A stretch of DNA of 64,000 bases. Origin: Candidatus Pacearchaeota archaeon (GTDB taxonomy: Archaea; Nanobdellota; Nanobdellia; Pacearchaeales; GW2011-AR1). The position numbers were made by a program, and so were the translations under genes. The stretch's first letter is position 1, and each line of letters starts with the position of its first letter. The notes under the pieces are model-generated. The model had not been told where the DNA came from. It was given only the letters and a program-made list of their open reading frames with translations, and did not search any database. The DNA is taken from the NCBI GenBank assembly GCA_050303855.1, contig JBNLCO010000010.1, forward strand, positions 30,207-94,206. The letters are read 5' to 3'. Shown here piece after piece: positions 6,367 to 32,241 of the stretch.

Positions 6367-6915
6367 ATGAAAAGGGTGAATAAAAAAGGTGCAATGGAAA
6401 TGTCCGTTGGGACGATTGTTACTATAGTTCTTTTAATGGCTGTTTTAGTTCTTGGGTTAACTTTGGTTAGACAAATATTTAGTAGTTCAAAAGGTGCGAT
6501 AGATTTAACCGATCAACAACTAAGAGACCAAATAGGCAAAGCATTTGGTGCAGAAGATCAGAAAATTATTGTTTATCCAGAATCAAGATATATTGAAATA
6601 AAACAAGAGGATAGAGATGCTATAGGTATTGGTATAAGAAATCTTCTTGAAGGTGTTTCTGGAACACAAACATTCTCTTATGAAATAAAAGTTGGTGAGA
6701 GTACTTGTGGAAATGCGGATGCTTTAAGTTGGATTGAATTAGGAAAATCAGAGCAGAATATTCCAATTCCAGTTGGAGAGTATGCGTCAAGAAAAGTTAA
6801 CTTTAGAATACCTACTGGATCACCTTTGTGTACGGTTAGATACAGGGTGGAAGTTGGAACAAGTTCAGGAACTTATGCTACTGACTTCTTTGACTTGGTT
6901 GTTAAAGCTAAGTAA
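6367..6915 (+). CDS. archaeal type IV pilin-like protein (class III signal peptide)
   Basis: The N-terminus MKRVNKKG|AMEMSVGTIVTIVLLMAVLVLGL has a basic segment and a KG|A cleavage motif followed by a hydrophobic helix. The ORF table start at 6349 lies upstream in the same frame. Confidence 0.45.
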   Translation: MKRVNKKGAMEMSVGTIVTIVLLMAVLVLGLTLVRQIFSSSKGAIDLTDQQLRDQIGKAFGAEDQKIIVYPESRYIEIKQEDRDAIGIGIRNLLEGVSGTQTFSYEIKVGESTCGNADALSWIELGKSEQNIPIPVGEYASRKVNFRIPTGSPLCTVRYRVEVGTSSGTYATDFFDLVVKAK

Positions 6916-6946
6916 GTATTTTAAATAACTATTTCTTTAAGATTAA

Positions 6947-10118: not shown

Positions 10119-10166
10119 GAAAAGAATATAAAGGAAACAATATTCATATATTTTGTGAGGTGAGAA

Positions 10167-11591
10167 ATGGCTGTACAATTTGATTATATTGCAAAAAAAG
10201 GATGGAGACCGAGTAAAGAAAATTATCTTGTTACTTTATTGAAGGTTGAATTAGATGAGACTGCTATTAAAGAAGCAAGATATTCACATTCTAAAAAGAA
10301 TTATTCTATAGTTAAATTACGTAGAGAGTTGTTCGAGGAAGCTGCCGCTACGGTGGCTGCTGAAAGCTCTACTGGAACATGGACAAAAGTTTATTCTGGA
10401 AAAGATTCTGGAATTCCAAATGCACATAAGTTAAGAGCTTTAGTTTTTGATTTAGATTATGAAAGACAGATATTCAAGATTGCTTACCCAATAGAGTTAT
10501 TTGAAATGAACAACATCTCGGGTTTGTTAGCTGGAATAGTTGGAAATATAGCTGGAATGAAGATGGTTGCTGCTATGAGGGTTTATGATGTTTATTTCCC
10601 AAAGAAAATGGTTGAAGCTTTTCCAGGACCTAGATATGGGATTGAGGGTGTTAGAAGATTATTGAAAAAACCAAAGGGATGTTTAGTTGCAACGGTTCCG
10701 AAACCCAAAATAGGGCGTACTGATGAAGAACAGGCTAAACTTGCGTCCGTTTTATTTACTTCGGGTAGTGGAACTTACGAAGGAATAAAGGATGATGAAA
10801 ATTTGACAAGTTTGAAGTTTAATGATTTCTATAAACGATGTAAAAAAGTTCTTAATGAAATTAAGAGAGCAGAGAAAATTACAGGAAATAAAAAATTCTA
10901 TCTTTGTAATGCAACTCATTCAAACATTAATGAGATGTTAAAGAGAGCTAAGGCGATAAAAGACAATGGAGGAATATTTATGATGATGGATGTTATCACA
11001 ACGGGGTATGCTGCTGTTGACACAATTAGAAGAAATAATCCTGGTTTAGCAATTCATGCTCACAGGGCAATGCATGGCTTCTTAACAAGAGATAACTCTC
11101 CAGGAATTCATGGAAAAGGTAAACTATACGGATTTAGTATTTCAATGATATTTATTGCTAAACTTATGAGGCTTATGGGAGTTGATAGTTTACATGGAGG
11201 AAGTCCCTTAGCTAAAATGGAAGACTATGGGGAAGCGGAATATATTTGTCAGGTATTACAAGATAAAAAGTTAAAACCACATCCAAAGATACCCACTCTT
11301 GGACAAGATTGGCACCATATAAAGCCTGTATGGATGACAGCTTCAGGAGGTTTACATCCAGGAGATTTTGAGTCTGTATTGGGTGCTCTTGGAGAAGACA
11401 TAATCATACAATGCGGAGGAGGATTATTAGGACATCCAGAAGGTGTTGAAGCGGGAGTTGTAGCCATTGAAGAGGCTAGAACTATTTATGAGAGCAATAT
11501 TCCAATAAGAAAATTTGTTAAGGATAATCCAAGCAGTCCCCTAGCTATCGCGGTTAAACATTGGGGATATGGGCCGAAGATTGTTTATTAA
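10167..11591 (+). CDS. rbcL: ribulose-1,5-bisphosphate carboxylase large subunit, form III (archaeal)
   Basis: 474 aa. The N-terminus MAVQFDYIAKKG..., the length, and the absence of a small-subunit gene nearby fit form III RuBisCO. Confidence 0.85.
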   Translation: MAVQFDYIAKKGWRPSKENYLVTLLKVELDETAIKEARYSHSKKNYSIVKLRRELFEEAAATVAAESSTGTWTKVYSGKDSGIPNAHKLRALVFDLDYERQIFKIAYPIELFEMNNISGLLAGIVGNIAGMKMVAAMRVYDVYFPKKMVEAFPGPRYGIEGVRRLLKKPKGCLVATVPKPKIGRTDEEQAKLASVLFTSGSGTYEGIKDDENLTSLKFNDFYKRCKKVLNEIKRAEKITGNKKFYLCNATHSNINEMLKRAKAIKDNGGIFMMMDVITTGYAAVDTIRRNNPGLAIHAHRAMHGFLTRDNSPGIHGKGKLYGFSISMIFIAKLMRLMGVDSLHGGSPLAKMEDYGEAEYICQVLQDKKLKPHPKIPTLGQDWHHIKPVWMTASGGLHPGDFESVLGALGEDIIIQCGGGLLGHPEGVEAGVVAIEEARTIYESNIPIRKFVKDNPSSPLAIAVKHWGYGPKIVY

Positions 11592-11592
11592 A

Positions 11593-11892
11593 ATGGCAAA
11601 GAAGGTTGAAGAAAAAATTAAGAAATCCAAGAAAGAAATTGCCAGAGAAAGGCTAAGGAGATTTCATAGAGAGTTTAATAAAGCAACAACTACTGCAATT
11701 ATGGCTGCCTTTGGTTTTCTAGTTGCTTTGGTCTGGAAAGATGTTATAACCGAATTTGTAGATAATATTTCCGAGAAGAGTCCAATTCAAGGTAAGTTAA
11801 TTAGTGCATTAATTGTAACAATTATTTGCGTTCTTGGAATTATGATTGTAACGAAGATTTTTAGTGAGAAAAAAGAAGATGAAAAGAAGTAA
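11593..11892 (+). CDS. small membrane protein
   Basis: About 100 aa from MAKKVEEK. Two TM helices. Confidence 0.35.
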   Translation: MAKKVEEKIKKSKKEIARERLRRFHREFNKATTTAIMAAFGFLVALVWKDVITEFVDNISEKSPIQGKLISALIVTIICVLGIMIVTKIFSEKKEDEKK

Positions 11893-12334
11893 AATACGTA
11901 AAGCCATATTTGCTGTTACTTATTCTGTGGGTCTTGATGGAAAAGTAAGTTACGTTATTCTTAAGCGTAAAAAACATTGGAAAGGCTGGGAGTTTCCAAA
12001 AGGAAAGATCGAGAAATTTGAACGTAAAAGATCTACTGTGAAAAGAGAAGTTTTTGAAGAAACGGGATTAAGGGTTCTTGAGGTGAGGAGATTTAATGTT
12101 AAAGGTTTGTATAAATATAAAAAAGAATTAAAGGATAGGCCGGGAGTTATAGGTCAGACTTACACTTTATTTGCAGCAAGAGTAAAAAAAGGTGATGGAA
12201 AGGTTAGCATAGATCCAATAGAACACGTTTTAGGAAAATGGGTTTCGTTCAAAGAAGCAGAGAAATTGTTAACATGGCCAAATCAAAAGAAATGTTTGAA
12301 GATTGTAAATGATTGGTTAAATAGCAAAAGATAA
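11864..12334 (+). CDS. NUDIX hydrolase
   Basis: The Nudix box GKIEKFERKRSTVKREVFEETGL matches the GX5EX7REUXEEXGU pattern. Confidence 0.6.
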   Translation: MRKKKMKRSKIRKAIFAVTYSVGLDGKVSYVILKRKKHWKGWEFPKGKIEKFERKRSTVKREVFEETGLRVLEVRRFNVKGLYKYKKELKDRPGVIGQTYTLFAARVKKGDGKVSIDPIEHVLGKWVSFKEAEKLLTWPNQKKCLKIVNDWLNSKR

Positions 12335-12358
12335 AAAGCGAGAATTTGTTTAAAGAAT

Positions 12359-12748
12359 ATGGCAGAGTTTAGAGAATATATTTTATCATCGGGTACAAAA
12401 ATACTTTTAGGAAAAGATGCAGAAAACAATGATAAATTGGTAAATAAATTCAAAGGTGGAAGGAATTTGATATTACATACTGTTGAGCCTGGAAGTCCTT
12501 TTTGCGTTCTTGAGAAATTGAACCCATTTAGGCACGAAGTTCTTGAAGCAGGAATTATTTGTGCAATGAAAAGCCAGGATTGGAGAGATAATCATTCTAA
12601 CGTTAAACTGCACATGTTCTCAGGAAATGATGTTAAAAAACCATTTTTGGCAAAAGCAGGCACTTGGAGAATTACTAATGAACCAAAAGTAATTAATATT
12701 AAAAAGAGAGACATCGAGAATTGGATAAAGAAAAATGAAAGGAAATGA
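12359..12748 (+). CDS. NFACT-R/DUF814-like RNA-binding domain protein
   Basis: ILHTVEPGSPFCVL resembles the DUF814 hlHadxxpGShvvl core. Confidence 0.35.
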   Translation: MAEFREYILSSGTKILLGKDAENNDKLVNKFKGGRNLILHTVEPGSPFCVLEKLNPFRHEVLEAGIICAMKSQDWRDNHSNVKLHMFSGNDVKKPFLAKAGTWRITNEPKVINIKKRDIENWIKKNERK

Positions 12749-12980
12749 TCATTTAGTTGAAGAAATTAATAAAGAAACTTTCCGTAAGGGAGGAAATGAT
12801 GCAGATATCAAACAATACATGCTTTCAATACTTTATGGTGAAGGGATAGAAGGCCTTAAGGATTTTAATAAAAGGTATTCAAAAGACTTCACAAATGCGG
12901 GATATGATGTTAGGAAGATACAAGCAGATGCTTTATATATTTGGCATGGCTTAAATGAGTATGGGGGCGGCAAAACATAA
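12735..12980 (+). CDS. hypothetical protein
   Basis: 81-aa ORF in operon context. Confidence 0.3.
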   Translation: MKGNDHLVEEINKETFRKGGNDADIKQYMLSILYGEGIEGLKDFNKRYSKDFTNAGYDVRKIQADALYIWHGLNEYGGGKT

Positions 12981-13234
12981 TGGCCATAACTAAAGAAATA
13001 CAATTGGGAAAGAATGGAATCACTGAAGGATTTATGGATAGTTTAAAGAATCATTTCATTAAATCTCAAAATGTTAAAATTTCTGTCTTGAGAAGCTTTT
13101 GTAGAGATAAGAAAGAGTTGGAGGAGATTAAAAATAAGATCTTGGCAGAGTTAGGAAAGAATTATACTGCAAGGACGATCGGATATACTATTGCTTTAAA
13201 GAAATGGAGAAAAGCAAGAGAGGAAGCTTTATAA
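12980..13234 (+). CDS. YhbY/CRM-domain RNA-binding protein
   Basis: LGKNGITEGFMDSLKNHF...VKISVL matches the YhbY signature (LGKNGLTEGV...ELIKVK). Confidence 0.55.
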   Translation: MAITKEIQLGKNGITEGFMDSLKNHFIKSQNVKISVLRSFCRDKKELEEIKNKILAELGKNYTARTIGYTIALKKWRKAREEAL

Positions 13235-13373
13235 ATCAAAGTTTTCTGTGTAAAATAGGTAAATTGCTCTTAATCGAGTGAATCTATCACTGTAGTGCTG
13301 AAAATATCTCTATGAAATTTTCGCGTTGTCCGAAATTTACGATTTCGAACAAAAGTGAGCCTGATATAAGAAA

Positions 13374-13802
13374 ATGGTAAACCCTGTATATGAAATGGAT
13401 GCTCAAGAATATAATTTAAAGTTAGCTGAGGCTTTGAAGCAGGTTGAAGAGTTTAAGGCTCCTGAATGGATAATTTTTGTTAAGTCAGGTCCAAGTAAGG
13501 AAAGACCCATAGAAGATGATGATTTCTGGCAAAAGAGAGCGGCTTCTGTTTTGAGAAATATTTACAAGAAAGGTTCTGTGGGAACTGAGAGATTAAGAAC
13601 AAAATATGGTTCTAAGAAAAATAGGGGATTTAGACCTGAAGAATTTAGGAAGGCTTCTGGCAAGATTATAAGAACAATCTTACAGCAATCTGACAAAGCA
13701 GGATTTACAGAAATACAAAAGGCTGTTAAGGGTGTTAGAAGTAAGAAGCCAGGTAGAATAATTACAGACAAAGGTAAAAAGTTTTTGGAGGATATAAAGT
13801 AA
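13374..13802 (+). CDS. rps19e: 30S ribosomal protein S19e
   Basis: APEWIIFVKSG...RAASVLRNIY...GTERLRTKYG are conserved S19e blocks. Confidence 0.8.
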   Translation: MVNPVYEMDAQEYNLKLAEALKQVEEFKAPEWIIFVKSGPSKERPIEDDDFWQKRAASVLRNIYKKGSVGTERLRTKYGSKKNRGFRPEEFRKASGKIIRTILQQSDKAGFTEIQKAVKGVRSKKPGRIITDKGKKFLEDIK

Positions 13803-13803
13803 A

Positions 13804-14007
13804 ATGGCTTTGAAGAACTCACAAAAGAAAACTACTCTTGCAGTAAAAGGAAAGCAAACAAAATGGGCTCCAGTATGGGCTGTTTTGAAAAAGTTTGGAA
13901 ATGGTAAAAGAATCCACCCCTCAGTTATGACTCACGTGAAAAGATCATGGAGAAGAAATAAATTACATGTTAAGCCAAGAAAGGCTAAACCAAACCACTA
14001 CGGATAA
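13804..14007 (+). CDS. rpl39e: 50S ribosomal protein L39e
   Basis: 67 aa and very basic. WAPVWAVLK...HPSVMTHVKRSWRRNKL matches L39e. Confidence 0.8.
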   Translation: MALKNSQKKTTLAVKGKQTKWAPVWAVLKKFGNGKRIHPSVMTHVKRSWRRNKLHVKPRKAKPNHYG

Positions 14008-14008
14008 A

Positions 14009-14317
14009 ATGACTGAAGATCAAATATATTATTCAAAAGAATTTGTTATAAGAAAAGATTATGCGGATACTTATAGGAAAATTCTTGGATTGGAGGGCAA
14101 GGGCCTTAAGAAAGGTGTAGATAGCACTAACAAACACTTTCCAGTTTCAGGGGTCGTTCTATATAAAAGAAACCAAGAAGACCCAAGAAAAGTGGATTAT
14201 TTTCTTTCAGCAACTAAAACTAAAAGAAAAGTTGAGTTACAAATCTTATCTAAAGATGAAGATTTAGAAACTAAAATAGAAGAAGTTGAGGGCTTACTTG
14301 GAATAAATTTGAACTGA
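14009..14317 (+). CDS. hypothetical protein in ribosomal-protein operon
   Basis: About 102 aa from MTEDQIYY. It lies between L39e and L31e. Confidence 0.3.
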   Translation: MTEDQIYYSKEFVIRKDYADTYRKILGLEGKGLKKGVDSTNKHFPVSGVVLYKRNQEDPRKVDYFLSATKTKRKVELQILSKDEDLETKIEEVEGLLGINLN

Positions 14318-14318
14318 A

Positions 14319-14936
14319 ATGGCAGAAGCAAAGAACGAAAAGATTGAAAGAGAATATGTAATACCCCTTAGAGAGAAGTATAGACATGTTGCTAGATATA
14401 AGAAAACTCCAAAGGCGATAAAATCAATTAAGGAATTTATAGCTAGGCATATGAAAGTTTATGATAAAGATTTGAATAAAATAAAAGTAGATATGCATGT
14501 TAATGAATACTTGTGGGCTAGAGGCATAAAAAATCCTCCTCATAGTGTTAAAGTTAAGGCAATGAAAGATTCTGAAGGGATTGTTAAAGTTGAATTGGTA
14601 GATTACCCTGAAAAATTGAAATTCAAGAAAGCAAGATTGGATAAACAATCTAAGGACGCTCTTGAAGCAATTGAAAAGAAGAAGACTTTGAAAGAGAGAA
14701 TGCAGGAAACTGTTAAGGGAACTACTTCAGGAAAGAAAGAAAAATCAGAAGATGAAAACAAAGATGGCGTAAAAGATTCTGTTGAAGTTTCAGAGAAAAA
14801 GGCTTCAGTTAAGGATGCTGGAGAGAAAATGGAAAAAGAAATGGCTAAAGAAGCAAAACACACTACCAAATCTGTAAGTCCGAAAGAAGAAAAGAATAAT
14901 AAGAAAGAATATAATAAGAGTTCTAGAGGCAAGTAA
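14319..14936 (+). CDS. rpl31e: 50S ribosomal protein L31e with K/E-rich C-terminal extension
   Basis: REYVIPLREKY...HMKV...DLNKIKVDMHVNEYLWARGIKNPPHSVKV is the L31e core. A long lysine/glutamate-rich tail follows. Confidence 0.75.
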   Translation: MAEAKNEKIEREYVIPLREKYRHVARYKKTPKAIKSIKEFIARHMKVYDKDLNKIKVDMHVNEYLWARGIKNPPHSVKVKAMKDSEGIVKVELVDYPEKLKFKKARLDKQSKDALEAIEKKKTLKERMQETVKGTTSGKKEKSEDENKDGVKDSVEVSEKKASVKDAGEKMEKEMAKEAKHTTKSVSPKEEKNNKKEYNKSSRGK

Positions 14937-15569
14937 TTACTTTAATATTTTTCCGGTTTCTTCATACCATAAATAAAGATCCAATTCTCCTTGAGAAAGA
15001 TTTGTTTTTTCAGATATTTGTTTCAGAACATTTTCAATTTCAACATACTTTTTAGGAGTTAGAGATTTGTTTTTTGGTCTTTCTATAAGATTATGTTTTG
15101 CTAAAAGATCTACAATATGAAAGTCTATTATGGCTAGGTCTTTTTGGCCGATATTTCTTAAGAAATGTGAAGCTTCTTTCATTCCAATCCCTTTTATGTT
15201 TTGAACAACCCAATTTCTTTTTTCAAAGTCAGTTTGAAATTCGTTTAGAGTTTCTTTTATTGAGTTTACATGAGGCCTTGCAAGAACTACATAGTTTGCT
15301 CTTGCATTGGGAAATCTGTGTCCAAGTTCTGATAGCTTTTTAGCGAGATCTTCTTCTGATAAGGTCATGAAACCATCTCCAATAGCGTTTTGTATTTTTA
15401 TTCCGCCGTGAGCCGAGAAGTTTGCTGTCATAAAACAGAAACACAATTCTTTGAATATCTCCGGGCTATCTTTCGTTCCAAGATCTTCAAATTCTCTCAT
15501 TTTTGAATCTATTATTTCTTTTATGTTTGAATTTTTTAGAGATTCTATTTTTTCTATTAACACGCGCAT
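14937..15569 (-). CDS. ogg: archaeal-type 8-oxoguanine DNA glycosylase (Ogg2-like, HhH-GPD)
   Basis: The IKGIGMKEASHFLRNIG helix-hairpin-helix is followed by the catalytic D in IIDFHI. The length matches Ogg2. Confidence 0.6.
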   Translation of the reverse strand: MRVLIEKIESLKNSNIKEIIDSKMREFEDLGTKDSPEIFKELCFCFMTANFSAHGGIKIQNAIGDGFMTLSEEDLAKKLSELGHRFPNARANYVVLARPHVNSIKETLNEFQTDFEKRNWVVQNIKGIGMKEASHFLRNIGQKDLAIIDFHIVDLLAKHNLIERPKNKSLTPKKYVEIENVLKQISEKTNLSQGELDLYLWYEETGKILK

Positions 15570-16177
15570 TTTATTCCCTCTAGAATTTCATCTTTCTTTT
15601 TCTTTGATTGGTGAGTCTTTCCGAATCTTACCAAATTAGCATTAACCTTGTTCCAATATCTTTTAGGGAAGAGTTTTTTTAAGTCTTCTTCAATTTTATG
15701 AGGCTTATTTTCCGGAGCTTTTGTCCACCCTAAGTATCTTGAAGAATATATGACGTGAGTGTCGCATCCTAGGCCAAGTTTTCCAATTTCAGTTAAGAAA
15801 ACATTTGCAGTTTTTCTTCCAACTCCTGGGAGTTCTACTAATTCTTCTATATTTTCTGGAACCTTTGAGTTGTATTCTTTTACAAGCATTTTTGCACAGT
15901 TCAAGATATTCTTTGACTTATTCCTATGGAAGTTTACAGATCTTATTGTTGATTCTACTTCGGAGAGTTTTGCTTGAGATAATTTCTTTGGGGTTGGAAA
16001 TTTCTTGAATAGTTTTTTGCAGACTTCAATTGTTACTTCGTCTCTTGTACGTGCAGAAAGAACTATTGCAATTAGAGTTTGAAAGTTATTAGACCACCGT
16101 TCTGCAGCAAGACGCATTTCATTTCCAAGTTTAGAGAGTTTGTTTAATTGTTTAATAGCTGTTTTAGAATCTACCAT
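15557..16177 (-). CDS. nth: endonuclease III family DNA glycosylase/AP lyase
   Basis: HhH-GPD motif LVELPGVGRKTANVFL...GCDTHV. The C-terminus has only two Cys, so it may lack the classical 4Fe-4S loop. Confidence 0.65.
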   Translation of the reverse strand: MVDSKTAIKQLNKLSKLGNEMRLAAERWSNNFQTLIAIVLSARTRDEVTIEVCKKLFKKFPTPKKLSQAKLSEVESTIRSVNFHRNKSKNILNCAKMLVKEYNSKVPENIEELVELPGVGRKTANVFLTEIGKLGLGCDTHVIYSSRYLGWTKAPENKPHKIEEDLKKLFPKRYWNKVNANLVRFGKTHQSKKKKDEILEGIKCAC

Positions 16178-23988: not shown

Positions 23989-24414
23989 ATGGTTATGAAA
24001 AAAGAGGTTGATAAAAAGAAGTTGAAGAAAAATTCCAATAGAAGAGCTTCTAGGAATTTTGTTATAGCTTTGTCTGTTGTGAGCATAATTGGATTTTTGA
24101 GTATTATGGTGGAGAGTTTATTTTATTGGGATGTTTCAGGTTATATTGATACTTTATGGTTGATTGTTTTGGGATTGGGTTTGATTTTAGAAACAACAAT
24201 TAAAGAGCTCAAATCCGTAAAAAGAAAGGGATTAACTTCAGAATATTTAGGAAAGATAACAATGATTGTTGTCGGAAGTATTGCAATAATTTCAGGCATA
24301 TTGAGTTTACCTCAAATAAACGTTCAGAATGCTTCATTCCTTGCTGTTAAAGGGATTATCAGTATTTTAGCTATAATCTTTATTATATTAGAAACTTGGG
24401 TTGCTAGAAATTAA
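23989..24414 (+). CDS. membrane protein
   Basis: 141 aa with a basic N-terminus and four TM helices. Confidence 0.4.
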   Translation: MVMKKEVDKKKLKKNSNRRASRNFVIALSVVSIIGFLSIMVESLFYWDVSGYIDTLWLIVLGLGLILETTIKELKSVKRKGLTSEYLGKITMIVVGSIAIISGILSLPQINVQNASFLAVKGIISILAIIFIILETWVARN

Positions 24415-24482
24415 CATTAGGATTTGATGAACTTTGACGATTAATTGCGAAGCTGTCGAAGTTGAGTGGAGCCTGCAAGGCG
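24412..24482. repeat. 71-bp direct repeat, copy 1 (identical to 29049..29119)
   Basis: taacattaggatttgatgaactttgacgattaattgcgaagctgtcgaagttgagtggagcctgcaaggcg occurs identically at both positions. Confidence 0.8.
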
Positions 24483-25084
24483 ATCGACCGGAGCGAAGCG
24501 TAGGGACAGTATGACGGAAGAAAAAATTTGCGTTATGTTTATAAAGTAGGCTATATTTTCAAAAACTATGCCATTACTAGTTGAAGTTAGACACACCGAT
24601 TCGGGATTGGAAGGGGTAACTACATCTGGAGATTCAATTAAATTATCAGCCCCAACTCCAAAAGTAAGACTTTTACAACATCCTCCTGCAAGGGAAGAAC
24701 AAACCAGAGAGGGACAGGATAGGTGGATAAATAATGTTGTAAATGATTTAATTCTTCCAGAATTAGGGGATGATAAGTTTGTCCAGATGGGCGGAAGAGA
24801 ATCGAGTCTGTATAATGCTGGCATAGCTTTTGCATATAATGAATATAGCAGAAGAGAATAAGCAAGTTTTTTCTGAGTAATATTGAACATCGGGATTAAG
24901 ATAAGTTTGGCGTAGCCAAATTTGGGTAAAATTCTGCAAGAATTTTCCTCTAAATCCTTGTTAAATGAGGGTGAGCCTGCAAGGCGTGGCACGAGCGGAG
25001 CGACGCAGAGTTTTAATTTTTCTTTTCAGGTTGAGGGAGGACGGTAAGACGACCAATTAATTAGAGAGATAAGCCCGCATTTTG

Positions 25085-25105
25085 TTTCTTTTTTCTAAAA
25101 AGAAA
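25085..25105. repeat. AT-rich perfect hairpin TTTCTTTTT-TCT-AAAAAGAAA within a 24-nt repeat (second copy at 26694..26714)
   Basis: The identical 24-mer ttgtttcttttttctaaaaagaaa appears twice. Both copies lie in non-coding spacers of the island. Confidence 0.6.
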
Positions 25106-25135
25106 ATGGGGAGTTCCTATTTTGCTTCTTTTCTT

Positions 25136-26110
25136 TTACGCAATTAAATTTGAAGAAAGATAATCAAACATATAATCTATTTTATGAACAAGAAGTTTTG
25201 ATCTTTCAGTTTTTTCCTTGTGTATATATTCTGAGAAAATACTTACTGTATAAATGTAAATCCATTTATTGAGTTCTTCAAATTCAGATTTTGAAAGTAT
25301 TTTTTTTGTTTCTTTCATTAATCTAATTGTATCTTCTCCTGTCTCATTAACTCCTCCTTTCAAAATAAATCTAGCCAAATCTTCAAGAGGTCTCCCAAAA
25401 TTTATCTTAGGATCTATTATTAGAAAATCCTTATCTTTATACATAATATTCCGACGAGACATATCTCCATGAATTATCTGCTGAGGCAAACCATTCAATT
25501 CTTTATGGTAAAAAGAAAGTTTTTCTGCATGTTCGTTACTCAACTTTCCTTTTTCTCTTGCAAATTGAAGAAACTCTGGAAATTGACCATTATATCCCGT
25601 TTTTCCAAATTTAGAAATTTCTTCTTTAGATAAATAATTTTTATCCTTTGAATATTTATCACTCATTTTGATAACACTCTTTGTTATCTCTGAAATAAAA
25701 TCAAGAGCTTCAATGTCTGATACCTCTTGCATTGTTGAAAATTCTTTCAGATAGGGACAAATTAAAAAATTATTTGGTAATAATTCATATTCAATTATTT
25801 TACTACCTGAACTAAATTTATTTTTAGTAAATAAGCTAGTAATCTGCGCTTTATTTTCCCAAGATAACTCTGCATTTTTTATTATTTTATTCGTAGCGGT
25901 CAAAACGACTACTGAAGCTATACTTTCATCTAATATTTTTACTGGCAAATAATCATCCTTATCAGGCAATTCATTGTATTCTCTTTCAAACTTTAAATTT
26001 TCTTCAGTAATTTTTTCATCTGAAACCCATGTAGTCAAAATACCTCTCCTATTTTTTGGCAAAATGAACTTTTTCCCTTTCAAGGTAATTGCATCTATTT
26101 TTTTTGTCAT
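25136..26110 (-). CDS. phosphotransferase-family kinase (APH/choline-kinase-like fold)
   Basis: 324 aa. Brenner motif IIHGDMSRRNIMY, then IIDPKINFGRPLEDLARF (DFG-like). Confidence 0.6.
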   Translation of the reverse strand: MTKKIDAITLKGKKFILPKNRRGILTTWVSDEKITEENLKFEREYNELPDKDDYLPVKILDESIASVVVLTATNKIIKNAELSWENKAQITSLFTKNKFSSGSKIIEYELLPNNFLICPYLKEFSTMQEVSDIEALDFISEITKSVIKMSDKYSKDKNYLSKEEISKFGKTGYNGQFPEFLQFAREKGKLSNEHAEKLSFYHKELNGLPQQIIHGDMSRRNIMYKDKDFLIIDPKINFGRPLEDLARFILKGGVNETGEDTIRLMKETKKILSKSEFEELNKWIYIYTVSIFSEYIHKEKTERSKLLVHKIDYMFDYLSSNLIA

Positions 26111-26693
26111 TATATTAAGATTAAAAAGTTTGTATTTATATTGATTGCTGTAAAGACATGTTTATACTTTCGGCGTGAGCCGACAAATTATCCTAAGGAT
26201 TAGGAACTCCCCTATTAATGAAAAATTTGCGTGAAACGAAGTGAAACCTTTTATCCTCTGTTATGTGAAATTGTCAAATTTCATTTCGGTTTTTGTTGGT
26301 CGGATAAAAGAAGTTTTTCTATTTTTGTCGAAGACAAAAAGCTATTTGTCCAAAGGACGCAGGCTTTTTTCTCCTCTCGTTAGGGTGGGAAGAAAAGAAA
26401 AATTAAAATTTGGGCGAAGCCAAGCAACATCAGGATTTAGAGAAGTTCTTCTGACCTCGAGACTGGAGCGGAACCTTACAGGCTCGAGCTGGAAGAAGAA
26501 TTTGGATGGAAGAAACTGCAAGTTTCTGGAACTCTTTATCCCCTGTTCAACTCTCCGTAGGATTGATTTTTAATGCAATGTTCCGAAGGAAAAAATCAAA
26601 GTCGTGAGCTATATTAATTTAAAGAGGACACTTTAGGACGGTGGGTTCCGTCTGTAAAACCCATTAAATGAGAGATGTGTGCTTTCCTTTTTG

Positions 26694-26714
26694 TTTCTTT
26701 TTTCTAAAAAGAAA
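26694..26714. repeat. second copy of the TTTCTTTTT-TCT-AAAAAGAAA hairpin
   Basis: Identical to 25085..25105. Confidence 0.6.
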
Positions 26715-26782
26715 TTAAATTTTTTGGGAGAAGCGAGTTTTTAATCGTTAAATTATTAAAGGAGTTAATTATTCATTAAATT

Positions 26783-27979
26783 ATGCATAGAGAAGAATAT
26801 ATTAAAGATATGAAGGAAGTGGGGGCAAAATCTCTTTCCTATTTGGATAAGTTTCTAAAAAGTAAAATCCAAGATAAAGAACTTTTTGAAACAATAACTC
26901 TTTTTTTGAAAAAAAGGGAAGATGCTATCGCAAGACCTTGGATTGTAAAAAATTCTTTCAGTTTTTTTTCTGGTAAAGAAGCAGATACAAAAAGTTTGCC
27001 TATGTCAAGCGTTGTAGAGTTAGAGAATATTTCAAATTATCAAAGCAACGCAGTTTATGACAATAAGTATATAATCAAAACGGAAAAAGACAAGGTTCTA
27101 CAAGTTTTAGCTTCATTTATCACAAGAGATTTAGTAGATGACTTAATCTTTGAAGAATACAAAGAAAAAACAGCTGTTTTGTTATCTGGTGTTTTAAGAA
27201 AAATCGATTTTTATGACCAAACAGGACAATACAAAGAATTTCAGAAATTGTTTTACGAAGAAGGATACTCATTTGAAGATTTAGAAAAATATACTCTAAC
27301 TTATTTAGAAAAAGCTATGTTTTATGGGGGTGCTTGGGTTGGGGGGTTAATCTTGGCAGGAGCAATTTTAAGTTTTGATAAATTTCCTGATAATGAAGAC
27401 TTAAAACATCTTGTTAAATATGGGATTTTAACGGGAACTGCAATGAATATAATAAATGATATAAGCGATTATGCTCTTTTTGAAAAACAAAAAAGTAAGT
27501 TTGGTATGCACTACAAAAAGCCGGAAGACCAATTTAGAGATATTGAAAATAAGAGAATCCTAATTCCTTTCTTTTATACAATTTATCAAGCAAAAAAGAA
27601 AAATAAAAAGGAATATGATAAATTGTTGAGTTTTTTAGGAAAAGAATTGTCTATGGAAGATAAAAAAGAGATTTTTGAATTGATGAAAAAATATAATGGA
27701 TTAAGCTATGCTTACAGTATTGCTAAACTTTTGAATAATAGGGCTTTAAAGGAATTGGAAAAAGTTAAAGGAAAAACAAAAGAAATTGATTTTTTCAAAA
27801 TTTTATCATCAATAGTGGAGAACAATAAATTTTTACACTATTACCGTTCTGAAAATGCGGTAAAAAAGGTTACATTAAATCCAAATGTAAAGAAAAAAAT
27901 CAAATCACATTTTTTTTATGATGCTGGGGTTGCTAATGGTATGGCATCAGACTTCTTCGGAAGTTTGAGAGCTTTGTAG
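26783..27979 (+). CDS. isoprenoid/polyprenyl synthetase-like protein with degenerate Asp-rich motifs
   Basis: 398 aa. GTAMNIINDISDYA parallels the SARM GxxFQIxDDxxD with ND in place of DD. An upstream VVELENIS aligns weakly with the FARM. The fold is all-alpha. Confidence 0.35.
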   Translation: MHREEYIKDMKEVGAKSLSYLDKFLKSKIQDKELFETITLFLKKREDAIARPWIVKNSFSFFSGKEADTKSLPMSSVVELENISNYQSNAVYDNKYIIKTEKDKVLQVLASFITRDLVDDLIFEEYKEKTAVLLSGVLRKIDFYDQTGQYKEFQKLFYEEGYSFEDLEKYTLTYLEKAMFYGGAWVGGLILAGAILSFDKFPDNEDLKHLVKYGILTGTAMNIINDISDYALFEKQKSKFGMHYKKPEDQFRDIENKRILIPFFYTIYQAKKKNKKEYDKLLSFLGKELSMEDKKEIFELMKKYNGLSYAYSIAKLLNNRALKELEKVKGKTKEIDFFKILSSIVENNKFLHYYRSENAVKKVTLNPNVKKKIKSHFFYDAGVANGMASDFFGSLRAL

Positions 27980-27984
27980 CTCAT

Positions 27985-28032
27985 GCAGGTTCGAATCCTG
28001 TCCCCAGCGCTTTCATTAAAAACTCGCTGGGG
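27985..28032 (+). other. tRNA T-arm/acceptor-like fragment plus GC-rich hairpin immediately after the CDS stop
   Basis: GCAGG-TTCGAAT-CCTGT is a canonical T-stem-loop, followed by CCCCAGCG. The complement CGCTGGGG lies 15 nt downstream, giving an 8-bp stem. Confidence 0.35.
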
Positions 28033-28191
28033 TGGAAGAAAATTTAATCATAATTTCAAAACTGAAAGTTTTGACTATCTGTTGCGAAGCACGAAAGCAC
28101 ACATCTCCTAACTGGGGTGGGTGGTCGGGGGTTTTAAAGTGTCCTCTTTACTAACTTTTTACATTTTAGTTTTGGCTCACGATTGAGTTTA

Positions 28192-28268
28192 ACATCGGGG
28201 ATAAAAGAAGTTTTTCTGGAACGTAGTGGAAGAAAAATTTGGGAAAATTGCGAGCCGAGCAATTTTCC
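28192..28268. repeat. 77-bp repeat with nested perfect hairpin, copy 1 (identical to 30061..30137)
   Basis: acatcggggataaaagaagtttttctggaacgtagtggaagaaaaatttgggaaaattgcgagccgagcaattttcc contains the hairpin GGAAAATTGC-GAGCCGA-GCAATTTTCC. Copy 1 also has an outer GGGATAAAAG/CTTTTATCCC pairing. Confidence 0.75.
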
Positions 28269-28350
28269 TTTTATCCCTTGTTATACGGGAGTGAATGGAA
28301 CGAAGTGAAGTGAAAGCGTAGCGTCCCCTTTAGCGTTTGCGGGTGTGCCG

Positions 28351-28941
28351 TCATTTCAGAATATAGACCTTTCTTTGCAAAAATCCGTCTTCTTCACATC
28401 CTTCATCAAGTATTTTTTCTTCAATAATCTGCATTTTAGATTTTGTGAAAAATTCTTTTAACTCAGAATCAGTATAATACTTGTAGATATGCATATTGTT
28501 TGATGAAGGATGTATTAGTTTATTTACTTTTGAATCGAATTCCTTTGCCTTTTGAACATTTGTTTTCTTTGTAATCATTTCTTCTACAATAATCACTATT
28601 TTGCCTACTCGCTTAAGTTCAATAAAAACTTCCTCAACACTTATTTTAGGAGGTAAATGGTGCAAAACATATTGTAGGAAAACCACATCAAATGATTTTT
28701 GTTCAAAAGGTAACTTTTCAAGAGACGATTCAAAAAACGGAAAAGAAATAACTTCTTTATCACGAATATCCTCAATATCCAATAAGGTTATTTTTGTATC
28801 AAATTTTTTATTGAAGAAAAATGAATTAAATCCATTACCGCAGCCAACATCTAAAAGACTTTTATCCTCAATATATTTTTTAACAACAGGTAAAAGTATT
28901 TGTTGGTAATCTTCAATAATTTGTTTTACATTTTTCTGCAT
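28351..28941 (-). CDS. class I SAM-dependent methyltransferase
   Basis: 196 aa. Motif I LLDVGCGNGFNS, then an acidic-loop VFLQYVLHHL-like motif. Confidence 0.65.
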   Translation of the reverse strand: MQKNVKQIIEDYQQILLPVVKKYIEDKSLLDVGCGNGFNSFFFNKKFDTKITLLDIEDIRDKEVISFPFFESSLEKLPFEQKSFDVVFLQYVLHHLPPKISVEEVFIELKRVGKIVIIVEEMITKKTNVQKAKEFDSKVNKLIHPSSNNMHIYKYYTDSELKEFFTKSKMQIIEEKILDEGCEEDGFLQRKVYILK

Positions 28942-29048
28942 AATAATATAAAAATAACCTTGATTTATAATTATTTCTTTTCCGTTAAGATTTTTGCAAA
29001 GGAGTTAGGCACGCCCGCAAATATCGTATAACATTAGGATTTGATGAA

Positions 29049-29119
29049 CTTTGACGATTAATTGCGAAGCTGTCGAAGTTGAGTGGAGCCTGCAAGGCGT
29101 AACCATTAAATCCTTGTAT
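29049..29119. repeat. 71-bp direct repeat, copy 2
   Basis: Identical to 24412..24482. Confidence 0.8.
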
Positions 29120-29267
29120 AATCCCTCCGAGCCAACTGGCGAGAGGACGCAGTCCGTGGGGCGAGGAAAGCTTTAGCTTGACGAAGAAGTAAAATAAATC
29201 ATTTACTAATATATTAAAAAGTTCACTAAGTGAACACAAGAATATGGGGGAAAGGGGCGTTCAATAA

Positions 29268-29978
29268 TTATTTCTTCTCTTTTGAAATTAGATTTTCGTA
29301 TGCTAATAAATGACTACAAAGATTATTTTGAGCATAGAAAGGGCAATCGCAAGACCAAATATTATTTTCTTTTGATAGATGTTTCTCGCCGTGATCAGTT
29401 TTTATGCTTACGAATTTATCTGAAATAGTAAATCTTTCAGGTTCATTTGAATATCTAGTTGCTTTAGCAATTTTCCCTATTAGTTTGCTCACAAATTCAT
29501 ATTTTGATTCTCTGTTTTCTGGAGATATTTCTACTAGAATAATATCGTTTCGTTCTTTAACAGATTTAATGAAATCATCAGAATAATTCATAGTAATGGT
29601 TGCAAGAGTGGTGTTCTCAGAATCTAAATATTGTGTTGCTAATTCTTTGAATGATTCAGAATGCATTTGCATTCGACCAATCTCATCTAGATATAATATG
29701 TCCTTAGAATTTATCTCACTTACGAAAGGAATTATTTTGTCTAAACTGAGAATCTTAACACCATACTTGGAAACTTGGATTTCACTATCAAAATAAATAC
29801 TTGCAAGAATAGCACTTTGTTCATTATGCGTAAACATTTCAAATCCAGTACGCTCACCATCTTCACGAACTTCTTTAGTGATAAGACCCATTTTATTATT
29901 TTGTTCGGAAATAATTCTCTCAAGCATAGTAGATTTTCCACTTTTAGGCATACCTGTTAGTAAAATATTGTTACGCAT
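29268..29978 (-). CDS. THEP1-type NTPase fused to a C-terminal SWIM-like zinc finger
   Basis: 236 aa. P-loop GMPKSGKST. GFEM and YLDEIGRMQMHS align with archaeal THEP1/MJ1559 NTPase (GFRI, IIDEIGKMELFS). The C-terminus CDCPFYAQNNLCSH fits the SWIM CxCxnCxH pattern. Confidence 0.55.
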   Translation of the reverse strand: MRNNILLTGMPKSGKSTMLERIISEQNNKMGLITKEVREDGERTGFEMFTHNEQSAILASIYFDSEIQVSKYGVKILSLDKIIPFVSEINSKDILYLDEIGRMQMHSESFKELATQYLDSENTTLATITMNYSDDFIKSVKERNDIILVEISPENRESKYEFVSKLIGKIAKATRYSNEPERFTISDKFVSIKTDHGEKHLSKENNIWSCDCPFYAQNNLCSHLLAYENLISKEKK

Positions 29979-30060
29979 TTTAATAGAAGAAATCAGTTTG
30001 CATATATAAACTTTAAGCCTCTTTTCCCTTTTTTGTAAATGTTTTGTTTTATTGGATTAT

Positions 30061-30137
30061 ACATCGGGGATAAAAGAAGTTTTTCTGGAACGTAGTGGAA
30101 GAAAAATTTGGGAAAATTGCGAGCCGAGCAATTTTCC
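30061..30137. repeat. 77-bp repeat with nested hairpin, copy 2
   Basis: Identical to 28192..28268. Confidence 0.75.
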
Positions 30138-30290
30138 GTTAAATTCCTGTTATGTCTCCCGACGACTAAAAGGAGAAGAGCGCAGCGGGGCAAAATCCGA
30201 AGGATTTTGAGTTCAGAATTCGGGCGCATCTGATATTAACTACAAAGTAGTAAAATAGCCGAAAGATTTATAAATATAAGATTTATTCCA

Positions 30291-30530
30291 TTGTGTATGG
30301 AAGAAGGATACTTTAGATCAAATAATGGAATAGGAAGAAGTTTTGCGGAAATTGCAAAATATTCAGCTCTTTTAGGTGGAGTATATTCTGTTGCTCAAGA
30401 TGAAGTTAATTTGACTGGAGCTGCGGTTGCAGGAGCAGTGTATATTTTAGCAGATACAGTCAAAGAAACATTAAGAGAAAAAGCTGATGCTTATAGAGCG
30501 CGAAGACTTGAAGACAAATTAAAAGAATAA
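30291..30530 (+). CDS. small Gly/Ala-rich amphipathic peptide (paralog A)
   Basis: 79 aa. Shares a central hydrophobic G/A-rich segment (LTGAAVAGAVYIL) with the paralog at 30901. The two are flanked by conserved upstream (aaagtagtaaa...cgaaagatttataaa) and downstream (aaagaataaatcttt) sequence. Confidence 0.4.
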   Translation: MCMEEGYFRSNNGIGRSFAEIAKYSALLGGVYSVAQDEVNLTGAAVAGAVYILADTVKETLREKADAYRARRLEDKLKE

Positions 30531-30573
30531 ATCTTTTGGTTTCTATCTATTAGCCCGAATTCTGAATTAGACA

Positions 30574-30714
30574 TAACATCGCGATTAAGAGAAGTAAATC
30601 CGAAGGATTTATTTCCCCGAACTTTTCCTCTGGAGCGAAATGGAATGAAGCGACGAGCTGAAAAGTGAGGGCGTAGCGGAGTGCAACGGAGCGGAGTTTT
30701 AATCGCGATGTTAA
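30574..30714. repeat. MITE-like element: 14-15 bp terminal inverted repeats (aacatcgcgattaa / ttaatcgcgatgtt) enclosing about 110 bp
   Basis: Inverted copies lie at 30574-30590 and 30697-30714. The interior contains the AAATCC-GAA-GGATTT hairpin also seen at about 30193. Confidence 0.45.
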
Positions 30715-30900
30715 GAAATCCGAGCCAAAGGTGAGGACGAGGAATAACTGCAAGTGGTTTTTTGCGAAGCAAAAAAATTCTGAAGAGTATTTCCACTTTC
30801 GAAAATTCTTTGATATCGTAGTTTTTGAAAAATAAGTTATTAACTTTAAAGTAGTAAATTAAACGAAAGATTTATAAAGTATTAGTTTATTCTTTCTTAC

Positions 30901-31146
30901 ATGAAATATAAAATACTTAATGCTTACAGAAGTAAGAAAGGAGAAACACTTGTTGGCTTAGTTCAACTTGGAGGACTTGTTGCTTTAGTTGCTGGAGGAA
31001 TTACAGATAGTTCTGCTATGAGTATAGCTGGAGGAGCAGGACTTGGAGCAGGAGTAATAGCAGAAGGAATTGATTATGCGAAAGCATATATGGAAGCAAC
31101 CTTAGATTATAAAGCCAACAAAAAATTTACTAAAGTGAAAGAATAA
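30901..31146 (+). CDS. small Gly/Ala-rich amphipathic peptide (paralog B)
   Basis: 81 aa, GLVALVAGGITDSSAMSIAGGAGLGAGVIAEG. Tandem paralog of 30291..30530 with matching flanks. Confidence 0.45.
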   Translation: MKYKILNAYRSKKGETLVGLVQLGGLVALVAGGITDSSAMSIAGGAGLGAGVIAEGIDYAKAYMEATLDYKANKKFTKVKE

Positions 31147-31413
31147 ATCTTTCGTTTTTATTATTTTTATTTTTCAAAAATTTCGTTTAATCAGCGATGT
31201 TATGCGACAATTTTAATTTCGCATTGGAGCGTTAAACGAAGATATCAAAATCAGAATTTGAGATTTATCTCCGACGATAAAAGTTAAAACAGCGACGGAG
31301 AAAGTGGAAATATTTTTCTTAACATGTATTATGTCTACTTTTCAAGGAGACATAGTCAAAACAGCCATATTTTTCCACATAAGTTTTAAATAATCTTCTC
31401 ACAAAGTTCCAAT

Positions 31414-32241
31414 ATGAATTATGCCCAAAATAAAGAGGAATTGTTACAAAAACTTAAAGAGAGATGTATTTTAAGGGGATTTTCGCGAACAACAATCAAA
31501 TCATATTTATATCATGTAGAAAGGTTTCTTAAATTTTTAGATAAAAGTAGACTTAATCTTACAAAAGAAGGTGTTAAATCTTATTTATTGGCCCAAGATG
31601 TTCAAGTAAATACTTCAAGATTACAATATGCTTCAATAAGCTTCTTTTTCAAGGAAGTTTTACAAGAACCTTTTTCTCTCGAAGAAATTCCAATAAAGAA
31701 AAAAGAAAAACAACTCCCAAAAGTAATTTCAAAAGAAAAAATAAAACAAATGATTGAACTTACTGAAAATTTGAAACACAAATTAATTATCAAACTTCTT
31801 TATTCGTCTGGATTGAGATTACAAGAATTAATTAATTTGAAAAGAAAAGATATTGATTTTGAAAGAAACCTTTTGAATGTCCGAAGAGGTAAAGGGAATA
31901 AAGATCGAGTTACTTTGGTTTCGGAAAACTTGAAAATGGATTTGTTAAAATACTATAGCAATGAAACCTTCAAAACAGAATATGTTTTTGAAGGCAGGGA
32001 GGGAAAATATACAAAAAAATCTGTGCAGAAAGTTTTAGACTTATCTGGAAGAAAAGCAGGGATAAAAGTTACACCTCATATGCTCAGACATAGTTTTGCA
32101 ACACATCTCCTTGAGTCGGGAACTGACATAAGACACATTCAAAAACTCCTTGGACATTCTGATCTGAAAACTACAGAGATCTATACCTATGTTTCAAATA
32201 GAGATTTATCGAAAATTAAATCCCCTTTAGATAATTTATAA
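31414..32241 (+). CDS. tyrosine recombinase (XerA/XerCD-like integrase)
   Basis: 275 aa. C-terminal catalytic region HMLRHSFATHLLESGTDIRHIQKLLGHSDLKTTEIYTYV (R...HxxR...Y), with an N-terminal SAM-like core-binding domain. Confidence 0.8.
   Translation: MNYAQNKEELLQKLKERCILRGFSRTTIKSYLYHVERFLKFLDKSRLNLTKEGVKSYLLAQDVQVNTSRLQYASISFFFKEVLQEPFSLEEIPIKKKEKQLPKVISKEKIKQMIELTENLKHKLIIKLLYSSGLRLQELINLKRKDIDFERNLLNVRRGKGNKDRVTLVSENLKMDLLKYYSNETFKTEYVFEGREGKYTKKSVQKVLDLSGRKAGIKVTPHMLRHSFATHLLESGTDIRHIQKLLGHSDLKTTEIYTYVSNRDLSKIKSPLDNL

Follow-up and report, generated by a model that had tools for sequence, protein, structure and literature searches.

Integron attC sites are imperfect inverted repeats of 57-141 nt with AAC...GTT R boxes, L boxes conserved in their pairing and a variable centre; the extra domain of the integron integrase IntI, some 35-40 residues near patch III, reads the extrahelical bases of the folded attC. 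Integrons, consisting of IntI, attI and attC arrays, are known in bacteria and in archaea, and the published archaeal examples have canonical IntI and attC (PMC9668308, Ghaly et al. 2022). By the rule used in the field, recombinases that lack the IntI-specific domain are not IntI, and IntegronFinder discards them (PMC4889954). We analysed a 64,000-nucleotide stretch (the window) of contig JBNLCO010000010.1 from a Candidatus Pacearchaeota archaeon, in which the part from 24.4 to 31.4 kb, next to the gene for a tyrosine recombinase, is made up of single genes separated by long spacers. A reading of the same DNA made without database searches (the sequence-only reading) had suggested an integron-like platform of mobile single-gene cassettes. 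The hairpins, comparative breakpoints and covarying stems described here support that suggestion, and we consider it likely that the locus is an integron-like gene-capture platform with an Xer-type recombinase in a Woesearchaeota/Pacearchaeota-type (DPANN) archaeon.

Genes of the array are separated by a median of about 267 nt, those of the rest of the window by 31 nt, and GC content is 36% in the spacers, 30% in the array genes and 33% in the window as a whole. When the spacers were compared with the full 64 kb by self-BLAST, their repeat family was restricted to 24.4-31.4 kb and every match was plus/plus. The sequence-only reading was thus right to describe the spacers as long, GC-richer and built from one family of related repeats, and the motifs that it quoted do recur (catcggggataaaagaagttt twice, a 34-nt aaatttggg...ttttcc twice, ttatccYYtgttat twice, gagcctgcaaggcg three times and TTTCTTTTTTCTAAAAAGAAA twice). 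The array occupies positions 24413-31320, comprises seven single-gene cassettes and ends at a putative attI-like primary insertion site, P (31321-31385, + strand), which contains AACATG, an imperfect palindrome or hairpin (TATTATGTCTACTT..AAGGAGACATAG) and a second hairpin. P is followed by a TATA-like box, and the ATG of the recombinase gene (31414-32241, + strand) is about 93 nt downstream. Every cassette begins, on its P-distal side, with an attC-like imperfect hairpin, H, and all of the H elements have the same orientation. Two features of integrons are therefore present in the locus: an attI-like site next to the recombinase gene and attC-like imperfect inverted repeats.

Relatives of the locus were collected by searching GTDB genomes, JGI metagenomes and a protein collection, and are labelled L001 and so on. 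They include more than 120 clusters of recombinase orthologues, each protein about 275 amino acids long and 71-85% identical, and the named sources are metagenome-assembled genomes of Woesearchaeota, Pacearchaeota and Nanoarchaeota. Folding of the spacers, a check proposed in the sequence-only reading, revealed conserved hairpins in which the AACA...TGTT core does not vary and the two sides of the stem covary. The H elements are 72-165 nt long and have a general form in which AACA-TC is followed by 2-4 unpaired nucleotides, a 9-11-bp stem, a branched and variable interior of 20-110 nt, the complementary stem and TGTT. Folded as single-stranded DNA, the six complete H elements of the window have z-scores of -2.2 to -5.6, with the + strand the more stable in all six. 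In the stem halves of 19 H elements, taken from the window and ten related loci, the AACA/TGTT R-box is invariant (19/19), compensatory double changes are found in 10 of the 11 L-box (inner-stem) pairs, and the covariation score is 0.475 against 0.169 in shuffles, a value exceeded by none of 500. Paired cells amount to 92.6% against 76% in shuffles, although this percentage is inflated, to the detriment of our interpretation, by the choice of some members with a complementarity filter; the variety of the sequences that keep pairing is unaffected. The central CATC sequence is gone from the 3' halves (CAAGG/CAGGG) and complementarity is kept.

The sequence-only reading had also offered two alternatives to an integron: proliferation of miniature inverted-repeat transposable elements (MITEs), to which foldback transposons may be added, and stacked integrations at a tRNA-derived att site. 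The presence of elements with terminal inverted repeats, and of one tRNA-like sequence in the region, speaks for these explanations. The array elements lack target-site duplications, however, and they are not dispersed, with no copies elsewhere in the 64 kb or downstream of the recombinase in the relatives; their orientation is uniform, and their interiors are mutually unrelated while the stems covary. The tRNA-like element is internal to one cassette (C5), no tRNA fragment is found at any junction and there are no tRNAs in the arrays of the relatives. Both alternatives fail on these points and seem to us scarcely credible. A stringent scan for L-box/R-box geometry, whose filter misses imperfect copies, placed 17 H-type hairpins upstream of the recombinase on the + strand and six in 263 kb downstream, both strands included. 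A minimum-free-energy-based hairpin scanner keyed on [AT]ACA[TC] was too noisy and was dropped.

Comparison with the relatives locates the boundaries of the cassettes. In two pairs of loci the same platform carries a different cassette: L002 and L085, like L009 and L096, are 100% identical from the AACA through 900 nt on the recombinase side and unrelated (29-34% identity) directly 5' of it. Other pairs have related cassette ends on diverged platforms. The window and L097 are 73% identical on the recombinase side and 89% identical over a 120-nt cassette end, up to the AACA, and the corresponding values for L083 and L162 are 78% and 97%. The two bases that follow AACA track the platform and not the cassette. 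An apparent 100% match between L164 and L165 was an artefact of the pattern used to locate the sites and was set aside. Blocks of the window that end at 26431 and 28190 adjoin H here and adjoin P elsewhere: positions 26162-26431 match L002 16-281 (85% identity) and L100 1-267 (78% identity), two loci in which the block directly adjoins P, and the right flank of cassette C5 (28028-28196) is 88% identical to L082 1978-2147, where it adjoins P and flanks a different gene of 441 amino acids. L097 has both flanks of cassette C1, where they enclose another small open reading frame (ORF) that runs in the opposite direction, and the C1-type internal hairpin there has a compensatory change. The hairpin E5 and its tail are 85% identical to L011 625-773. 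In L007 a cassette of about 900 nt lies between two copies of a 55-nt direct repeat that ends in AACATC, contigs L004 and L088 begin exactly at AACATC, and 8 of the 13 contigs longer than 20 kb end no more than 2.5 kb upstream of the recombinase. The variation in cassettes among relatives that the sequence-only reading had asked for is thus found even beside recombinase sides that are 100% identical, with the break exactly at the core. To judge from these junctions, the crossover by which cassettes are swapped falls within the invariant AACA, the counterpart of the AA|C (G|TT) point of integrons. If the - strand is taken as the top strand, the layout is that of a canonical integron: integrase gene and array diverge, the primary site adjoins the integrase gene, the hairpin is distal in each cassette and the crossover is in the AA|C of the folding (bottom, +) strand.

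P is found in 25 aligned loci at the same distance of about 93 nt from the ATG, as AACATC-TATTAnATCTACTT-nnn-AAGTAGATnTAAT followed by the second small hairpin and the TATA-like box. Its left arm is invariant and its right arm is variable, with changes that are partly compensatory or G·T. The covariation of the palindrome is modest and is compatible with either a hairpin or a symmetric protein-binding site, and the full palindrome is never duplicated between cassettes. Viral contigs contained no close relative of the recombinase; 21 exact matches to the P pattern in them were put down to chance, since they fall within coding genes from a small number of redundant phage families and lack the rest of the palindrome. 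The genes downstream of the recombinase (window 32243 onward, L005, L162, L164 and L165) differ in every long contig examined, and include those for a PP-loop ATPase, a cation ATPase and a CoA-binding protein. The recombinase and P are the sole conserved unit, and therefore the platform may be able to move as a whole. In L165, a ParE toxin gene and a small adjacent antitoxin-like gene (6613-7102) are part of the variable DNA upstream of the recombinase; chromosomal integrons typically contain toxin-antitoxin cassettes.

The stems of the H elements, and those formed by the inverted repeats that flank the genes (see below), are asymmetric between the strands. Transition mismatches on the + strand are G·T in 27 cases and A·C in 6 (binomial p = 3e-4; 0.005 when corrected for composition), and the G·T excess is independent of the strand of the enclosed gene. 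Of the seven-nucleotide minihairpins with the form N-C-GNA-G-N' (GCGAAGC, CCGAAGG, GCCTGCAAGGC), the spacers have 21 on the + strand, a density of 7.7 per kb, and a single one on the - strand; the density in the rest of the window is about 0.2 per kb. C(GNA)G triloops, as in d(GCGAAGC), are classic extra-stable DNA minihairpins and are not typical of RNA. Because the bias is to the + strand whatever the orientation of the gene, it appears that structure has been selected on one defined strand and is not related to mRNA. The bias points to a single-stranded DNA substrate, which is the simplest reading.

The same asymmetry could arise if the spacers were primarily structured non-coding RNAs, or elements of RNA-level regulation or processing, made from the + strand, the variability next to the recombinase then being secondary. 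Structures specific to the + strand, pairs that are compatible with G·U and compensatory changes all suit that explanation, as do the raised GC content of the spacers in an AT-rich genome and the conservation of spacer blocks at 80-90% between genomes whose recombinase genes are about 75% identical. Against it, Rfam at gathering and at permissive thresholds returned only tRNAs from the window and three relatives, and no RNA family for the spacers; the comparative breakpoints are exactly at the hairpin AACA, the structures are antisense through three genes, and the triloops are those of stable DNA hairpins. An RNA function of this kind is very improbable in our estimation, and we continue with folded single-stranded DNA as the preferred reading.

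Each H is followed by a GC-rich tail, often with GAACGAAGTGAG. This motif contains a C-GAA-G minihairpin and is placed a few to several tens of nucleotides past the 3' TGTT of many hairpins; it is found at 28298-28309 in the window and in the H tails of L011, L081, L092, L094, L099 and L162. With up to two mismatches allowed, 405 kb of sequence contained 20 copies on the + strand and 8 on the - strand, and the motif may be a site for an accessory protein or for priming. In addition, cassette-specific inverted repeats bracket every gene of the array, and the ends of the cassettes are complementary over 13-100 nt. Those of the kinase-like gene are GGGGAGTTCCTA/TAGGAACTCCCC and those of the 79-amino-acid ORF are TTCAGAATTCGGGC/GCCCGAATTCTGAA; the polyprenyl-synthetase-like gene has about 90 nt of inverted repeat on each side, and the duplex of the C5 flanks has an energy of -55.7 kcal/mol. 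Cognate flanks pair with a mean energy of -31.6 kcal/mol, compared with -19.9 ± 5.1 for mismatched flanks from the array and -17.2 ± 4.4 for 56 non-array genes (Mann-Whitney p = 1e-4). The same gene-flanking architecture is seen in L094, L095, L162 and L164. Three hairpins lie within 500 nt in L092 (1-520), and this locus also has an 'empty' cassette in which the inverted repeats AGTCGCGCC / GGCGCGATT are about 30 nt apart with no ORF between them, which suggests that genes can leave or enter a conserved cassette frame.

The recombinase has 275 amino acids and matches PF00589 (2.5e-38) and PF13495. It scores 230.8 bits with the XerA equivalog model NF040815 of NCBIfam, passing the cutoff of 220, and 214.5 with the integron integrase model TIGR02249, below the cutoff of 265. 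Its best match in PDB is PabXerA of P. abyssi, at 166 bits in one continuous alignment. The match to V. cholerae IntI4 has 156 bits and is in two pieces (query 11-173 to 6-173 and query 203-274 to 246-319), leaving unmatched about 43 residues of VchIntI4 (173-246) that belong to the IntI-specific domain. The catalytic R, H-x-x-R, H and Y align with those of XerA, and no paralogue was found in the window. The sequence-only reading had taken a grouping with chromosomal XerA as a sign against an integron, and the suggestion of an integron-like platform holds on this point as well: the XerA-family score and the missing IntI insertion do weigh against it, yet the protein is nearly as similar to the IntI of V. 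cholerae as to the XerA of P. abyssi, and its nearest bacterial relatives, in Bacteroidota, are insertion-less too and lie beside canonical attC arrays. The gene appears to be disrupted or truncated in L081, where the sequence at 9880-10325 encodes no more than the C-terminal 107 residues (75% identical) and the roughly 120 nt in front of them are unusually GC-rich and have no match in Rfam.

These properties of the protein are shared with a different explanation, in which the locus is a hotspot for serial integration at double-stranded Xer/dif sites, of the type used by integrative mobile elements exploiting Xer (IMEX). P would then be a chromosomal dif beside xerA, as difSL is to xerS, the cassettes would be small integrative elements that use the housekeeping XerA, and the hairpins would be paired inverted dif-like half-sites like those of the pdif modules of Acinetobacter. 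The recombinase passes the XerA equivalog cutoff without an IntI insertion, its orthologues are ubiquitous and uniform in length (275 amino acids) in these archaea, and there is no second recombinase in the window; moreover, P can be read as arm-6 bp-arm (..ATAA CATCTA TTAnATCTACT) and each H is formally equal to two inverted AACATCG..-type sites. On the other hand, a duplex site has no role for the + strand bias of wobble pairs and GNA minihairpins, the CATC centre has been lost from the 3' halves of H while complementarity has been kept, and no full copy of the P palindrome lies between cassettes. The cumulative GC skew also has no inflection at the locus, which is weak evidence. Serial integration at duplex dif sites is, in our judgement, unlikely, and a platform that acts on folded sites accounts better for the strand bias.

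The folded single-stranded attP of CTXphi, with two inverted dif-like sites about 90 nt apart, is said, in work of 2005 by Val and colleagues, to recombine with dif via XerCD. The resemblance to our locus is that an Xer enzyme without an IntI domain would act on a hairpin of inverted dif-like half-sites (50-140 nt apart here) and that elements would stack at one chromosomal site; the differences are that the units of the window are single genes and not phage genomes, that up to seven cassettes are present with a site between each, and that the host is an archaeon with a single Xer. The locus shares with the XerA/dif system of archaea, and with XerS/difSL and XerH/difH, which use a single recombinase and have dif next to its gene, the protein family and a conserved, partly palindromic site by the gene. 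The dif sites on record consist of 11-bp arms around a 6-bp spacer, are at the terminus and have no described cassette array, and the dif of Thermococcales is not adjacent to xerA (PMC2958812, Cortez et al. 2010). The window, in contrast to archaeal XerA/dif, has a cassette array and has P next to the recombinase gene. The Acinetobacter pdif modules are likewise gene modules bounded by inverted Xer-type sites, modular and reshuffled, but their sites are 28-bp double-stranded XerC/D sites without hairpin interiors, strand asymmetry or an adjacent dedicated primary site.

The nearest non-archaeal relatives of the recombinase are proteins of Bacteroidota that are 40-48% identical, have NF040815 as their best model (231-250 bits) and also lack the IntI insertion. 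In L019 (Sediminicola luteus, 10800-15796) and L046 (Saccharicrinis sp., 10800-15404) the recombinase is followed by a co-oriented array of single-gene cassettes in which the R''/R' boxes of the repeats are canonical (GCACAAC...GTTGTGC, GTTAGGC), and about 20 Bacteroidota contigs end 100-5000 nt downstream of the recombinase gene. One cassette of L019 has a start that is complementary for 17 nt to the start of the attC belonging to it, apparently a shorter version of the principle that operates in the long gene-flanking repeats of the window. These arrays resemble ours in the missing insertion, the best NCBIfam model, the single-gene cassettes with AAC...GTT ends and the systematic breaking of contigs at the array. 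They differ from it in being downstream of the recombinase in the same orientation, in their canonical R''/R' consensus and in the co-orientation of all their genes. They may represent an overlooked class of integron whose integrase is without the defining domain.

The parallels with integrons are extensive. The recombinase gene is divergent from an adjacent primary site, and single-gene cassettes of 0.5-1.8 kb have an imperfect hairpin at the end that is distal to that site. The AAC...GTT ends are conserved and the crossover is in AAC; structure is kept over sequence and one strand folds better than the other. Sites are more alike within an array, cassette ends are mutually complementary and content is hypervariable among close relatives. 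The window departs from integrons in the absence of the 35-40-residue IntI domain from a recombinase that scores as XerA, in R-box flanks that deviate from RYYYAAC/GTTRRRY, in unpaired bases that adjoin the 5' R-box of the folding strand, in cassette-end complementarity of 13-100 nt compared with 6-7, in hairpins trailed by a GC-rich tail with GNA minihairpins and in genes of both orientations with their own TATA-like boxes. Such a box was located by reading the sequence 25-30 nt upstream of each array gene, four of the seven being on the + strand and three on the - strand. The sequence-only reading had treated mixed orientation as an argument for alternatives to an integron; each cassette has its own TATA-like box and gene orientation would therefore be free, so the argument loses its force.

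Several points must be set against an integron-like platform. The IntI domain, held to be necessary for attC recognition, is missing and the XerA equivalog cutoff is passed, and the recombinase may be a housekeeping dimer resolvase. The R-box flanks do not follow RYYYAAC/GTTRRRY beyond AAC/GTT, with GTTRRRY fitting one of the seven window sites, and just three of the seven genes have the canonical cassette orientation. The only sign of single-strandedness is strand-asymmetric pairing, which a + strand RNA would explain likewise, and the evidence for exchange of cassettes consists of comparisons of metagenome assemblies. Neither an IntI-specific domain nor promoterless, co-oriented cassettes driven by Pc are found. 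Taken with the parallels, these observations support the view that the locus works like an integron and is not a canonical integron by the accepted IntI definition, given the lack of the IntI domain, the departure from the R-box consensus beyond AAC/GTT, the mixed orientation and the individual promoters.

In the mechanism that we envisage, the recombinase would recombine the folded + (bottom) strand of H with double-stranded P, and the resulting single strand exchange would be resolved by replication, as in integrons and in CTXphi/XerCD. Incoming cassettes would be inserted at P and older ones pushed outward. The dense C-GNA-G minihairpins would stabilise the single-stranded form, while the gene-flanking stems could draw one H site close to the next, or could give stability to the folded site once the cassette has been excised as a circle. 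In a circular cassette, the complementarity of the ends would extend the base of the H stem, and linearisation at the crossover would open this basal stem. The junction expected in such a circle is IR-R|AACA|own H, where IR-R is the right inverted repeat (the left being IR-L); for cassette C4 it would read ...GGCACGCCCGCAAATATCGTAT|AACATCGGGGATAAAAG.

A bolder proposal, which we put forward tentatively as somewhat short of an even chance, is that loci of this kind form a separate and undescribed class, 'Xer-integrons', that combines a XerA-family recombinase without the I2 domain with large folded single-stranded sites made up of the hairpin, the GNA-minihairpin tail and a long cassette-end stem. 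Such a class would occur widely among DPANN archaea and be related to the insertion-less recombinases of Bacteroidota. It would either be a surviving link between Xer/dif and integrons or prove that cassettes can be recombined in a structure-specific way without the IntI domain. A limited literature search, which does not prove absence, found no description of Xer-linked cassette arrays in DPANN or Bacteroidota, and six motif strings from H or its tail had no match in the part of the text of Ghaly et al. that was available (PMC9668308). In more than 25 loci, a recombinase without the IntI domain is here consistently tied to a cassette array with the logic of an integron, namely a primary site, hairpin sites, crossover in AAC and strand-biased folding. 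If the system is functional, the capture of gene cassettes is broader than detection rules allow, in DPANN and probably in Bacteroidota, and the proposed origin of integrons from Xer/dif becomes directly testable. The recombination system would also be a new one that recognises structure, and its programmable cassette-end stems would be unusually long. The locus would mark a hotspot at which symbiotic archaea with tiny genomes collect accessory genes and at which metagenome assemblies routinely break.

The cassettes are numbered outward from P. C1 (30575-31320) has the hairpin E8 (30575-30712) and its tail, IR-L at 30782-30800, an 81-amino-acid ORF (30901-31146, +), a hairpin block E9 (31181-31241) and IR-R at 31300-31318. 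C2 (30060-30574) has the hairpin E7 (30060-30151), IR-L at 30210-30247, a 79-amino-acid ORF (30291-30530, +) and IR-R at 30533-30568. The two small ORFs are a paralogous pair, the promoter-proximal 55 nt of C2 are 86% identical to their counterpart in C1, and E7 is 90% identical to E5 and has a degenerate 3' half. C3 (29030-30059) consists of the hairpin E6 (29030-29118), IR-L at about 29246-29259, a gene for an NTPase_1+SWIM fusion (29268-29978, -) and IR-R at about 30019-30033. C4 (28191-29029) has the hairpin E5 (28191-28282), a GC-rich tail, IR-L at 28336-28349, an S-adenosylmethionine (SAM) methyltransferase gene (28351-28941, -) and IR-R at 29008-29021. The gene identities given in the sequence-only reading are solid for the methyltransferase (Methyltransf_11, 7e-13), the NTPase-SWIM fusion (profile match 2e-33) and the tyrosine recombinase; the APH-like kinase (E = 5e-4) and the polyprenyl-synthetase-like protein (Pfam 5e-3, NCBIfam 8e-8) have weak matches. 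The nuclease that it called Hjc-like cannot keep that name: this 174-amino-acid ORF has no match in Pfam or NCBIfam, and its best sequence match in PDB (E = 0.04) is to a restriction-endonuclease-like domain.

C5 (26426-28190) contains the hairpin E4 (26426-26547), a long IR-L (26592-26686), the polyprenyl-synthetase-like ORF (26783-27979, +), a tRNA-like element (27923-28009, +) and IR-R at 28093-28173. The tRNA-like element has a score of 39.8 bits with the Rfam tRNA model and is called 'tRNA-???' by ARAGORN. Its acceptor, D and T arms are normal and its variable arm is long; it has no anticodon, the anticodon arm being an 8-bp stem with a UUCG loop. It overlaps the final 57 nt of the ORF and is missing from the homologous flank in L082. 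The spacer past this gene, which had been described as non-coding, thus begins with the tRNA-like element.

C6 (24886-26425) has the hairpin E2 (24886-24962) and its tail, a conserved block (25004-25132), the kinase-like gene (25136-26110, -) with inverted repeats at 25108-25119 and 26203-26214, and an inverted H-like block, E3 (26248-26313). The block at 25004-25132, of about 125 nt, is 75-81% conserved across genomes, where it is 3' of differing cassette genes: its relatives are at L004 4607-4734 (-), L081 9310-9461, L102 104-180, L165 7140-7270 and L162 8800-8880, and a weaker copy is at 26659-26714 in the window. Its sequence is GTTTTAATTTTTCTTTTCAGG..GGAGGACG..ACCAA..ATTAGAGAGA.AAGCC.GC.TTTTGTTTCTTTTTTCTAAAAAGAAAATGGGG, with a terminal hairpin TTTCTTTTTTCT/AAAAAGAAA, and it may be a terminator-like or other structured module. 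E3 is 'inside-out', its pyrimidine-rich half (CTTTTATCCTCTGTTAT) preceding the purine-rich half, and the second half of such blocks has TTGGTC where the AACATC core would stand. The type is kept in at least eight loci, among them L002 90-165, L011 365-437, L087 2200-2297, L090 3504-3608, L100, L162 9735-9810 and L165 8110-8180, and compensatory changes are found in the small hairpin that separates the halves. It looks like an inverted, core-less copy of H that has been retained for another role.

C7 (24413-24885), at the distal end of the array, has a truncated hairpin E1 (24413-24482), inverted repeats at 24519-24531 and 24862-24874 and a 97-amino-acid ORF (24568-24861, +). The 71 nt at its start (24412-24482) are 100% identical to 29029-29099 of E6, and E1 overlaps the stop codon of the flanking gene (23989-24414). 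The long gap of 720 nt that the sequence-only reading had noted at 24415-25135 is real; its description as non-coding does not hold, because the gap contains this plausible ORF. Finally, Logan contig L001, from a separate assembly, is 100% identical to the window over 5.9 kb and starts at window position 30108, inside the stretch of E7 that is common to E5; its start is a repeat-induced assembly break, and the contig partly corroborates the assembly of the window.

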